From Escherichia coli (GTDB lineage: Bacteria; Pseudomonadota; Gammaproteobacteria; Enterobacterales; Enterobacteriaceae), in assembly GCF_030013205.1 (NCBI RefSeq), contig NZ_CP122648.1: a DNA stretch of 64,000 nt. One strand, 5' to 3'. Positions 51,617 to 52,867 of the stretch are shown here, piece after piece (position 1 is the first letter of the stretch; every line of letters starts with the position of its first letter). Made by a program: the position numbers and the translations under genes. The notes below the pieces were generated by a model. That model saw only the letters and a list, made by a program, of their open reading frames with translations, was not told where the DNA came from and made no database searches.

Positions 51617-51922
51617 TCAATATACATTTTGCACCTTCGAGATAGTAATGAATGTTACTGTAACATGAGTTACAAACAGCTTCATACCCAGAGCTACTGA
51701 TGTATCAACACGATTCAACAATACCCGATATTTATTCCATGCCTCCAGCAACGATCTTTCTTCCTCCGTTGCGATTTCCAGATCTACAGCATCCTGCAGT
51801 GGCGCAATATACTCACTGAATTCCTGGATGTAGAACTGTGTGGTGACGGTCTTCCAGCCATTCGGCTCCTGCTGTATCGAAGCATACCAGGCTATTTCAA
51901 TATCGCTATGCTGCGGCAGCAT
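51617..51922 (-). pseudogene. tail fibre assembly (Tfa-like) gene fragment, 3' end disrupted
   Basis: Translation contains the conserved Tfa segment …[37 protein letters not shown] and then reads into unrelated AT-rich sequence. Confidence 0.6.
51699..51818. repeat. 120-bp direct repeat (tfa 3'-end segment), copy 1
   Basis: About 90% identical to 52748-52867 in the same orientation. Confidence 0.85.
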
Positions 51923-51978
51923 TTAACCCCTTGTAATTCATCGCCATAATTGATTTAATTCACAAATAAAACTATAAC

Positions 51979-52647
51979 ATGGTGAAATTAATGAAAAAAA
52001 ACACAGATGATGGGGCTAAAATTTACACACCACTTACCCTAAAGCTTTATGACTGGTGGGTTTTGGGAGTATCAAATCGGCTTGCATGGGGATGTACTAC
52101 AAAGGAACACCTTCTTCCACACTTTCTGGAACATTTAGGTAACAACCATCTGGATATTGGTGTTGGAACTGGGTTTTACCTTACTCACGTACCTGAGAGT
52201 AGTCTGATATCTTTAATGGATTTGAACGAAGCTAGCCTGAACGCGGCATCTACAAGGGCTGGGGAATCAAAAATTAAACATAAAATTAGCCATGATGTTT
52301 TTGAACCTTATCCCGCGGCGTTACATGGTCAATTTGATTCCATTTCCATGTTTTACCTTCTTCACTGCCTGCCTGGAAATATATCTACAAAAAGCTGTGT
52401 AATACGCAATGCGGCGCAGGCCTTAACTGACGATGGAACTCTATACGGAGCCACAATTCTTGGCGATGGAGTTGTGCACAATAGCTTCGGTCAAAAACTG
52501 ATGCGCATTTACAATCAGAAAGGCATCTTTTCAAACACAAAAGATTCCGAAGAAGGCTTAACACATATACTCTCAGAGCATTTCGAGAATGTTAAAACCA
52601 AGGTTCAAGGTACTGTAGTAATGTTTTCCGCTTCAGGGAAAAAATAG
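51979..52647 (+). CDS. class I SAM-dependent methyltransferase (substrate unknown)
   Basis: 222-aa ORF with SAM-binding motif I (LDIGVGTGFY); low-GC cargo-like DNA lying between the two tfa repeat copies. Confidence 0.7.
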   Translation: MVKLMKKNTDDGAKIYTPLTLKLYDWWVLGVSNRLAWGCTTKEHLLPHFLEHLGNNHLDIGVGTGFYLTHVPESSLISLMDLNEASLNAASTRAGESKIKHKISHDVFEPYPAALHGQFDSISMFYLLHCLPGNISTKSCVIRNAAQALTDDGTLYGATILGDGVVHNSFGQKLMRIYNQKGIFSNTKDSEEGLTHILSEHFENVKTKVQGTVVMFSASGKK

Positions 52648-52701
52648 CATCCAACCGCAGCACGTTCTTGCTTAAGACGTGCTGCGGCATAATCCCAATG
52701 A

Positions 52702-52866
52702 TTACTCCCTGACAGGGTTCGTAGGCCACTCAATATCAGGTGCAGTTGATGTATCAACACGGTTCAGCAACACCCGATACTTTTTCCAGGCTTCCAGCAA
52801 TGAGGTTTCTTCCTCCGTTGCGATTTCCAGATCCACAGCATCCTGAAGTGGCGCAATATGCTCACT
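52702..52866 (-). pseudogene. orphan Tfa C-terminal coding fragment (within repeat copy 2)
   Basis: Minus-strand frame reads …[53 protein letters not shown] with no upstream start. Confidence 0.55.
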
Positions 52867-52867
52867 G
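52748..52867. repeat. 120-bp direct repeat (tfa 3'-end segment), copy 2
   Basis: Direct repeat of 51699-51818. Confidence 0.85.

Follow-up and report, generated by a model that had tools for sequence, protein, structure and literature searches.

The feature analyzed here is located in Escherichia coli K_EC180, to which the 64-kb stretch of DNA examined around it, referred to as the window, is 100% identical. The feature lies within a 10.4-kb remnant of a prophage at argU, delimited by att repeats (Table 1). The att pair is a 50-nt direct repeat, 98% identical between 48339–48388 and 58670–58719, the latter overlapping the tRNA-Arg(UCU) gene argU that ARAGORN placed at 58672–58748, and the whole module thus lies between att repeats at argU, as in DLP12-type prophages. 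Inwards of attR, the remnant carries ompT and a hydrolase gene whose product matched the Pfam families Abhydrolase_1 (E = 5e-33) and Abhydrolase_4 (TAP-like; E = 1e-13); in phages ev243 and 2G7b, ompT likewise sits between the hydrolase gene and attP/int. No stf gene was found in the window, neither among the ORFs nor in the PGAP annotation.

Table 1. Features of the methyltransferase region and of the prophage remnant that contains it (positions refer to the window).
Feature	Position	Strand	Evidence or description
attR	48339..48388	no strand	Incomplete copy (50 nt) of the 3' end of argU; right boundary of the remnant
ompT, omptin protease	48809..49762	+	PGAP; b-region cargo within the att-bounded element
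TAP-like alpha/beta hydrolase, cargo	49949..51433	+	Pfam, phrog_20134; also in phages ev243 and 2G7b
tfaX' relic, 101-codon ORF	51617..51922	-	3' remnant of a second, non-lambda-type tfa
Repeat copy 1, conserved tfa C-terminal block	51698..51818	-	Repeat search and pairwise alignment
Divergent spacer 5' of ybcY	51923..51978	no strand	Promoter-like hexamers, consensus scan
ybcY-type class I SAM-dependent methyltransferase, intact	51979..52647	+	Pfam, phrog_2132, AF2, Foldseek
GC-rich hairpin, 14-bp stem	52655..52687	no strand	Between convergent ybcY and copy-2 tfa
tfaD' stump	52702..52873	-	Final 57 codons (stop included) of the lambda-type tfa native to the prophage
Repeat copy 2, conserved tfa C-terminal block	52747..52867	-	Repeat search and pairwise alignment
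Truncated O-like replication-initiator gene	52862..53104	-	First 78 codons kept, then two new codons and a stop
Deletion junction, 4-nt microhomology TACC	52870..52873	no strand	Common to the tfa parent and the O-like parent
attL within tRNA-Arg(UCU) argU	58670..58748	-	Left boundary of the remnant; ARAGORN, Rfam tRNA, att repeat

A first-pass annotation of this DNA had described two same-orientation segments of about 120 bp, roughly 90% identical and each encoding the C-terminus of the tail-fibre assembly protein Tfa, on both sides of a low-GC methyltransferase gene. In agreement with this, the repeat search returned a sole 121-nt direct repeat family with two copies, 89% identical and spaced by 1049, as did pairwise alignment, while the remaining direct repeats of the 3.5-kb region were all 20 nt or shorter. 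When read on the minus strand, both copies correspond to the Tfa C-terminus (~40 codons), and the Pfam family Caudo_TAP (PF02413) covered residues 31–77 only of the ORF containing copy 1 (E = 1.1e-17). The tfa remnants matched PHROG tail-fibre-assembly families; no match was obtained for these fragments with NCBIfam.

The two copies have different relatives. Residues 9–75 of tfaX' can be aligned to complete Tfa proteins from P2-like phages, e.g., RE2010, and the natural C-terminal end of the ORF has been replaced past ...RVDTSVA. PGAP labels it a pseudogene without N-terminus, consistent with the degraded tfa ORF that had been recognized at copy 1. The tfaD' stump, which extends six bases past repeat copy 2, shares 99.4% identity with the 3' terminus of the full 585-bp tfa gene found in O55:H7 strain RM12579, and homology between full-length tfa and tfaX' ends after ~132 nt. 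Judged from these alignments, the two repeats did not arise as an insertion-made duplication but represent the C-terminal block that two different tfa genes have in common. Lambda-type Tfa is ~190 aa at full length and is encoded directly downstream of stf, as indeed observed in the O55:H7 relative; since the N-terminal part is missing from both copies and stf from the window, the two copies are regarded as gene remnants, not as functional members of the family.

The gene between the repeats, ybcY, has a GC content of 40.7%, compared to 50.9% for the window, and its product contains five Pfam methyltransferase domains, Methyltransf_12, 23, 25 and 11 among them. Instead of the annotated 222-aa product, a 218-aa protein starting at the ATG at 51991 is probably the true one, given that the alignment to phrog_2132 begins at residue 5 and that M5 is invariant among 35 homologues. 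Similarly, D59, G61, G63, T64 and G65 of motif I (LDIGVGTG) are invariant in these 35 homologues. The AF2 model (pLDDT 89.7) shows alternating strands and helices, with residues 1–14 disordered, and a Foldseek search against the PDB returned more than 1400 methyltransferase matches at E ≤ 0.001. The best E-values ranged from 4e-12 to 1e-9, and the top structural match was a phosphatidylethanolamine N-methyltransferase (8ys9). By sequence, only weak matches to JHAMT and UbiG were found in the PDB, the profile match to JHAMT having an E-value of 2e-5, and the NCBIfam matches (CpaM, RquA and PmtA; 16–18 bits) stayed below their cut-offs of 175–390.

With regard to the substrate, a phage DNA methyltransferase of the anti-restriction Dam/Dcm type was considered and rejected because YbcY has no similarity to the N6-A, N4-C or C5-C families: DNA methylase families were absent from its Pfam matches, and none of the 50 top Foldseek matches in the PDB was a DNA methyltransferase. 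The predicted fold points instead to a small-molecule or lipid type of enzyme. YbcY shares the Rossmann-type fold and the LDIGVGTG motif with class I SAM methyltransferases of this kind (8ys9, JHAMT 7ec0, phosphoethanolamine methyltransferase, UbiG), from which it nevertheless differs widely in sequence (13–21% identity, TM ~0.6), no substrate-defining residues having been identified. The homologues of other genera are stand-alone chromosomal genes. In Salmonella, Enterobacter and Yersinia, the genes around them are unrelated and not conserved, and therefore provide no operon clue to the substrate. A literature search retrieved mentions of ybcY in gene lists and no functional study, and for tfaX and tfaD unrelated acronyms only.

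The spacer upstream of ybcY contains two pairs of promoter-like hexamers, TTGATT-17-TATAAC (~51950–51978) and TTAACC-16-CATAAT (51923–51950). In the consensus scan, such hexamers were no commoner than the chance rate; those of the window are also present in the ybcY<>tfaX spacer of K-12, where genomic SELEX located an RpoD holoenzyme site and an H-NS mark (PMC3946193). ybcY may be transcribed from the promoter predicted in this spacer. On the other side of the gene, the hairpin previously noticed after the methyltransferase has a folding energy of -23.9 kcal/mol (z = -5.56), none of 200 shuffled sequences being as stable, and it is kept in K-12, ev243 and 2G7b. The consensus terminator scan did not call it, and a canonical T-run is absent; owing to this lack of a call, we refer to it as a putative bidirectional terminator or RNA-stabilising structure only.

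The arrangement is not new, given that it has long been annotated in K-12 as the tfaD-ybcY-tfaX region of DLP12 (b0561–b0563 region, beside appY-ompT), with the argU site in both strains. Order and orientation are shared, from the tfa stump through the hairpin, the opposite-strand methyltransferase gene, the tfaX' relic and the cargo to ompT, and a 1.18-kb module is 97.9% identical (query 294–1474 vs. K-12 CJ236). The two loci differ, however, in several respects. The left flank is appY in K-12 and the TAP-like hydrolase gene in the window, and the 3' end of tfaX differs accordingly: K-12 tfaX retains ...VAPDIEWLIQP*, yet has an internal stop. The tfaD stump measures 172 nt and is fused to the O-like gene in the window, whereas in K-12 it measures 438 nt and is fused to a terminase fragment. 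Finally, ybcY is intact in the window and frameshifted in K-12, which indicates that, under laboratory conditions at least, the gene can be dispensed with.

The intact layout is represented by O55:H7, where J-lom-stf-tfa (585 bp)-hairpin-methyltransferase-tfaX'-hydrolase-ompT follow one another. Viable lambdoid coliphages (ev243, 2G7b (Nesevirus), PhiR26/29/30/49/68, Kati and Turner) carry the methyltransferase gene at 98.6–99.5% identity, followed by tfaX', the hydrolase gene, ompT and attP/int, with the hairpin and a tfa 3' stump beside it; they differ in having other side-fibre/chaperone modules and a stump cut elsewhere (at the equivalent of 52821 of the window). The methyltransferase is not a core gene of all strains: ybcY was present in 70% of complete E. 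coli genomes (3798 of 5426) and absent from the GB089-, STEC308-, EM18- and SFE8-type prophages.

Taken together, low GC content, its own strand, presence/absence polymorphism and location in the b-region of viable phages characterize ybcY, at the level of comparative sequence data, as a phage moron, i.e., cargo. That lambdoid phages carry cargo behind their tail-fibre genes is textbook knowledge, and known morons at this location include lambda lom and bor, b-region genes and the exchangeable effector loci of O157 lambdoid prophages. Like these, ybcY is independently oriented, compositionally atypical, placed at the end of the late operon and variably present in related prophages, and in O157:H7 more cargo occupies the same place downstream of the tail-fibre genes. 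Unlike the morons named, YbcY is a predicted cytoplasmic methyltransferase of small-molecule type rather than a surface protein or a secreted effector.

As had been seen earlier, an O-like gene in truncated form lies directly next to copy 2; this gene matched phrog_11896 and phrog_391 ('replication initiation O-like') over residues 1–79, while the intact O-like parent of strain 2014C-3075 encodes 314 aa. We mapped the junction base by base against the tfa of O55 and K-12 and the intact O-like gene of 2014C-3075. It occurs in 17 genomes only, all of them from swine and clonal. On this comparison, copy 2 was orphaned by a separate large internal deletion of the prophage and not by the cargo event. 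Furthermore, the 3' end of copy 1 and its flank are found with at least three upstream partners, namely P2-like (window), lambda-type (GB089) and a third one (STEC308), and the switch points fall inside the conserved tfa block. The arrangement thus reflects recombination at the tfa 3' end, an instance of ordinary phage mosaicism as far as the compared genomes tell. Of the earlier proposal of cargo insertion or recombination at this site, the cargo nature of the gene and recombination within the block stand; the repeats did not arise by insertion, and the loss of most of the copy-2 gene was a different event.

These observations can be reconciled in the following history, which we consider very probable as a whole. 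The feature itself forms the right-hand extremity (b-region) of a lambdoid prophage of DLP12 type at argU. Copy 2 is the remainder of the phage's own lambda-type tfa, which lies directly downstream of stf in intact relatives, and copy 1 (tfaX') would be an older relic of a tfa of another subfamily, left over from an exchange of tail-fibre modules by recombination within the conserved block. ybcY may have been captured by the phage from the stand-alone enterobacterial chromosomal gene family and kept as a moron served by a separate promoter region, the strong hairpin parting it from the converging tfa. Later, an illegitimate deletion at the 4-nt microhomology would have removed the sequence from codon 79 of the O-like gene to about codon 137 of tfa, leaving copy 2 as an orphan stump. 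As the blocks are direct repeats, homologous recombination between them could excise the methyltransferase gene.

Such a deletion, which had been predicted previously, is supported by natural variants. Nine genomes have a single tfa next to the appY flank, and four of them (EM18-18-42, WGI31CT, O169:H41 Res13 and CFIAFB20190172) carry a hybrid tfa without methyltransferase gene, i.e., the predicted product. EM18/WGI31CT, O169 and CFIAFB are clean single-switch mosaics, with a tfaD-type 5' part and a K-12-tfaX-type 3' part, whose crossovers are situated at three different points inside the repeat. The sequences around these points suggest that the repeats can recombine and delete the methyltransferase gene, the likely direction in the hybrids being loss rather than gain.

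The opposite direction has to be weighed. The single-tfa genomes without methyltransferase gene may be ancestral, the tfa-methyltransferase-tfaX' order having come from recombination with a donor phage in the block, and the repeats may never have deleted the gene. In line with this, SFE8-type prophages (SFE8, QA-1986; five genomes) have an intact single tfa of their own allele beside appY: the full-length Tfa ends in ...VAPDIEWLIQP*, is contiguous with the appY flank and bears its own SNP signature. This type looks as if it had never received the insertion, so that some or all of the forms without methyltransferase gene could represent the ancestral state. In K-12 tfaX itself, a window-type 5' part is joined to an SFE8/EM18-type 3' part, which shows that recombination in the direction of gain occurred at least once. 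Moreover, a synthetic query for the simple deletion product of the hydrolase-flank version retrieved none of the 5426 complete genomes at a coverage of at least 80%; just a further-truncated hybrid of this version, the GB089 type, was found, in five genomes. The hybrids themselves, however, speak against an exclusively ancestral state. EM18/WGI31CT contain the tfaX-specific EER signature and the TGA nonsense codon of the K-12 tfaX pseudogene, here within a tfa that is complete in all other respects and follows an intact stf, and between the crossover and the appY flank they match K-12 tfaX at 100% identity; O169 has a K-12-tfaD-specific SNP immediately 5' of its switch point. The simplest explanation for three different single-switch mosaics that share their two parental types is three independent recombinations between the copies, and we therefore regard the ancestral alternative as possible but rather unlikely.

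Conservation of the repeated block for a small RNA, and not for a protein, appears very improbable, even though Rfam assigned RF02111 (IS009) to 52745–52944 with 133.7 bits (gathering threshold 117) and gave 212–230 bits for K-12 tfaD and intact tfa genes. In the copy-2 match, the 5' third of the model was aligned to O-like sequence at low posterior probability, and copy 1 remained below the threshold (108.4 bits). The IS009 model practically describes the final 200 nt of the tfa coding strand, and the block, which is the C-terminal region of Pfam Caudo_TAP, is conserved as protein down to 40–60% amino-acid identity across P2-, Mu- and lambda-like phages and many genera. Hence, an IS009 match in a genome scan is best interpreted as a tfa gene or a fragment of one. 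The Rfam matches to mir-450 and CssrB were far below threshold and are attributed to chance.

Marginally less probable still is an origin of the two tfa ends from tandem prophages, in which tfaX' would terminate the older, resident one. Stacks of prophage remnants are common at tRNA sites, and the tfa fragments do come from different lineages; against this, tfaX', methyltransferase gene and tfa stump occur together within single viable phage genomes of 45–47 kb, between the tail-fibre genes and attP/int, and in the window one att pair encloses the whole arrangement. The least probable reading is a target-site-like duplication by a methyltransferase-bearing mobile element inserted into a single tfa, which the direct repeats around a low-GC gene would fit, but the copies are just 89% identical, copy 1 continues upstream of the block into a different Tfa lineage, ORFs, repeats and PGAP annotation between the copies show neither a transposase or integrase nor terminal inverted repeats, and IS elements and transposons are not known to make target duplications of 121 nt. 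An invertible tail-fibre segment of the Gin/Cin/Pin type was discarded, the repeats being direct and no invertase being annotated in the att-bounded element.

The natural variants of this locus are a clean case, resolved to the base, in which a short conserved coding block serves as a recombination joint, shuffling tail-fibre modules and cargo, and they indicate that such a block can also delete the cargo, at three separate crossover points. Although carried by 70% of the strains, ybcY has no known function, perhaps because the K-12 copy is broken, in contrast to the intact gene of most E. coli and of viable phages. We put forward only as a doubtful extension that the 120–130-nt block at the tfa 3' end might be a general linker for homologous recombination, forming a cassette site where cargo such as ybcY is repeatedly gained and lost, and that YbcY might methylate lipid head groups or small metabolites of the host upon lysogenic conversion, the top match of the modelled structure being a phosphatidylethanolamine N-methyltransferase. 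If true, such methylation would modify the properties of the envelope in those 70% of E. coli strains in which ybcY is present.

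The direct repeats proposed in the first-pass annotation, two same-orientation segments of about 120 bp and 90% identity, were recovered in a repeat search as a single direct family of 121 nt (89% identical, spacing 1049), and pairwise alignment of the two copies gave the same result; within the 3.5 kb around them, no other direct repeat exceeded 20 nt. As had been claimed, each copy codes for the conserved C-terminus of Tfa, and residues 31–77 of the copy-1 ORF match Pfam Caudo_TAP (E 1e-17). The intact ORF between them was likewise that of a low-GC class I SAM-dependent methyltransferase (Pfam Methyltransf_12/23/25/11; GC 40.7% vs 50.9% for the window), followed by the hairpin previously described, which lies between the converging methyltransferase gene and copy 2.

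The window matched the K_EC180 chromosome (E. coli, isolated from swine) at 100% identity; there, the module belongs to a 10.4-kb prophage remnant bounded by a 50-nt direct repeat. From attR to attL, the remnant comprises ompT, a TAP-like alpha/beta hydrolase gene, tfaX' (the tfa relic with copy 1), the methyltransferase gene, a tfa stump with copy 2, a truncated O-like gene, DUF4222, ymfL, ymfT (cro-like), ymfK (cI-like), yfdP, yfdQ, a truncated integrase gene and argU. It is very likely immobile, given the truncated integrase and an internal deletion of more than 30 kb. The same module occupies this site in K-12 DLP12, its genes being annotated as the pseudogenes tfaD, ybcY and tfaX (1.18-kb module, 97.9% identical), with appY in place of the hydrolase gene. 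The arrangement is therefore already on record as the DLP12 tfaD-ybcY-tfaX module, reflecting ordinary lambdoid mosaicism. The methyltransferase gene, ybcY, is broken in K-12, whereas most E. coli and the viable phages carry it intact. Elsewhere in the window, upstream of nfrB/nfrA, a fused type VI secretion gene and an ISEc1 transposase gene were also observed.

Coordinates of features in the window and in comparison loci
Feature	Coordinates (strand)	Remarks
Region with truncated T6SS VgrG (tssI) fused to N-terminally truncated zincin-like metallopeptidase toxin-domain gene, and ISEc1 transposase	34377-40993	
ISEc1 transposase (ISAs1 family)	~39857-40993	after the fusion
50-nt direct repeat	48339-48388 / 58670-58719	second copy inside tRNA-Arg(UCU) argU
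ompT and 494-aa TAP-like (tripeptidyl-aminopeptidase-type) hydrolase	48809-51433	inside att bounds; 2831-5455 in phage ev243 (L003)
Repeat copy 1	51698-51818 (-)	in tfaX'
IS009 match, copy 1	51696-51899 (-)	108.4 bits
Methyltransferase ORF	51979-52647 (+)	annotated start ATG 51979, 222 aa
45-aa ORF, WP_001309429.1	52592-52729 (-)	PGAP 'hypothetical protein'
Hairpin	52655-52687	-23.9 kcal/mol, z -5.6
IS009 match, copy 2	52745-52944 (-)	133.7 bits
Repeat copy 2	52747-52867 (-)	in tfa stump
tfa/O-like overlap	52870-52873	TACC
Integrase adjoining argU	57910-58656	annotated without N-terminus
IS009 matches	L002 7051-7249; L006 8345-8543	
97-aa hydrophobic protein, ev243	L003 6862-7155	directly upstream of tfa 3' stump
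Four-gene cargo block, O157:H7 F8797	L007 8455-10668	
Hydrolase/rz-like junction, OkiPb01688	L009 6434-6843	

With regard to the origin of the repeats, the undamaged layout was found in O55:H7 RM12579, in which J, lom, stf, a complete 585-bp tfa, the hairpin, the methyltransferase gene (opposite strand), tfaX', the hydrolase gene and ompT follow one another; copy 2 thus corresponds to the 57 codons at the 3' end of the tfa native to this phage. Homology between this complete tfa and tfaX' is limited to ~132 nt, so the length of the block is intrinsic and does not result from the truncation seen in the window. Duplication of one tfa as the source of the repeats was ruled out, as tfaX' upstream of the block belongs to another Tfa lineage: it aligns with full-length Tfa proteins such as that of the P2-like Salmonella phage RE2010 (residues 9–75, E 9e-12) and showed no alignment with lambda-type Tfa. 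The repeats therefore represent a C-terminal block common to two different tfa genes. The relic itself is decaying in several lineages: it has acquired an internal stop in K-12, lost 7 nt in phage 2G7b and had its C-terminal end replaced in the window.

The first-pass annotation had also suggested recombination at the tfa 3' end and repeat-mediated deletion of the methyltransferase gene. The former agrees with the finding that the copy-1 3' end and hydrolase flank are joined, through switch points inside the block, to three upstream partners: P2-like in the window, lambda-type in GB089 (five genomes without the methyltransferase gene) and a third type in STEC308. K-12 tfaX is itself a mosaic, with a window-type 5' part and an SFE8-type 3' part. 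For the latter, predicted recombination products were built and searched for in all 5426 complete genomes. The product with the hydrolase flank was present in none of the 5426, whereas that with the appY flank occurred as one contiguous piece in nine genomes. All six inspected (L019–L024) carried a single tfa adjoining appY without the methyltransferase gene, and two viewed with wide flanks had intact J-lom-stf upstream and ompT past appY. At diagnostic positions, EM18-18-42 and WGI31CT were tfaD-type up to a 41-nt stretch identical in both copies and 100% K-12-tfaX-type beyond it, with both the EER signature and the TGA nonsense codon. The switch lay further 3' in O169:H41 Res13, past a K-12-tfaD-specific SNP, and further 3' again in CFIAFB20190172. 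These three clean single-switch mosaics are most simply read as three independent recombinations between the direct repeats, since they share the same two parental types and one mosaic has the relic's nonsense codon in an otherwise complete tfa. SFE8 and QA-1986, the two inspected of five genomes at the same 96.0% identity, have their own allele with an intact Tfa, which resembles a form into which the cassette had never been introduced. The observation was confirmed and its first interpretation essentially right, with probable natural examples of the suggested deletion on the appY flank. In OkiPb01688, the hydrolase gene is joined directly to a truncated rz-like lysis gene and rrrD, with neither tfa fragment nor methyltransferase gene; this is a separate, independent deletion with an end close to the hydrolase flank (window ~51673).

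By tblastn, 14 records of phages, among them ev243, 2G7b, the PhiR series, Kati and Turner, carry the methyltransferase gene at 98.6–99.5% identity. In the b-region of ev243 and 2G7b the order is side fibre and chaperones, tfa 3' stump, hairpin, methyltransferase, tfaX', hydrolase, ompT, attP and int. Presence in every strain as a core gene had been the alternative; as it was found in 3798 of 5426 complete E. coli genomes, in one to four copies, the gene is common but not core, and its contexts identify it as phage cargo. In Salmonella, Enterobacter and Yersinia, relatives of 55–70% identity stand alone on the chromosome without phage neighbours, which suggests capture of a host-type gene. Since both viable phages carry ompT, with the hydrolase gene, between the tail-fibre region and attP/int, ompT is b-region cargo in this family, paired with a second putative protease/hydrolase. 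In O157:H7 F8797, a block encoding Mn catalase, two ferritin-like proteins and a general stress protein lies between a complete tfa and the methyltransferase gene, a site that accumulates cargo. In that genome the match to the tfa 3' end of the window breaks off 21 nt short of the tfa stop codon, which means that the hairpin region has been exchanged, and an IS66 element separates tfaX' from the hydrolase gene. The 97-aa protein of ev243, located where tfa is expected, might be a membrane or exclusion protein.

Copy 2 also overlaps a match to Rfam RF02111 (IS009) above the gathering threshold of 117 bits, the copy-1 score being below it; in the window match, the 5' third of the model is forced onto O-like sequence with low posterior probability. 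As scores reach 212–230 bits for K-12 tfaD, the intact tfa of O55 and that of EM18, the model represents the final 200 nt of the tfa coding strand, and its matches effectively mark tfa genes or fragments, not an independent sRNA. Protein-level conservation across many phage genera explains that of the block. The 45-aa ORF, which overlaps the methyltransferase 3' end, hairpin and tfa stop, is probably a spurious call; its equivalent in K-12 derivatives is named 'nucleocapsid protein'.

YbcY falls in a PHROG family catalogued as of unknown function. A profile from 35 homologues matched juvenile hormone acid methyltransferase (JHAMT; E 2e-5) and UbiG in the PDB. The best fold matches of the AlphaFold model (mean pLDDT 89.7), at TM ~0.6 and 13–21% identity, were phosphatidylethanolamine N-methyltransferase (8ys9), JHAMT, phosphoethanolamine methyltransferases and natural-product C- and O-methyltransferases. 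Neither the top fold matches nor the Pfam matches included any methyltransferase acting on DNA or RNA. From these we infer a small molecule or lipid head group as substrate. Translation probably starts at ATG 51991, four codons downstream of the annotated start, because the PHROG profile alignment begins at residue 5, M5 does not vary among homologues (length 218 aa) and residues 1–14 of the model are disordered; a GGTGA Shine-Dalgarno-like motif precedes this codon. In a genomic SELEX study of K-12 (PMC3946193), the ybcY<>tfaX spacer is listed as containing an RpoD-holoenzyme site that bears an H-NS mark; the window shares the hexamers of this site, TTGATT-17-TATAAC.

Finally, the description of copy 2 as an orphan fragment abutting a truncated O-like HTH gene held at base resolution. 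In comparisons with tfa (O55, K-12) and with the complete 314-aa O-like gene of 2014C-3075, tfa identity extends to 52873 and O-like identity begins at 52870, a 4-nt microhomology that marks an illegitimate deletion. This took out the remainder of the replication gene together with the genes for late regulation, lysis, head and tail, as well as the first ~137 tfa codons. Right-hand junctions differ in K-12, ev243 and 2G7b. The O'/tfa' junction was present in exactly 17 complete genomes, and as all 17 are of swine origin (O139:H1, porcine ETEC) at 100% identity, it represents one clonal event and could mark this swine lineage clonally.
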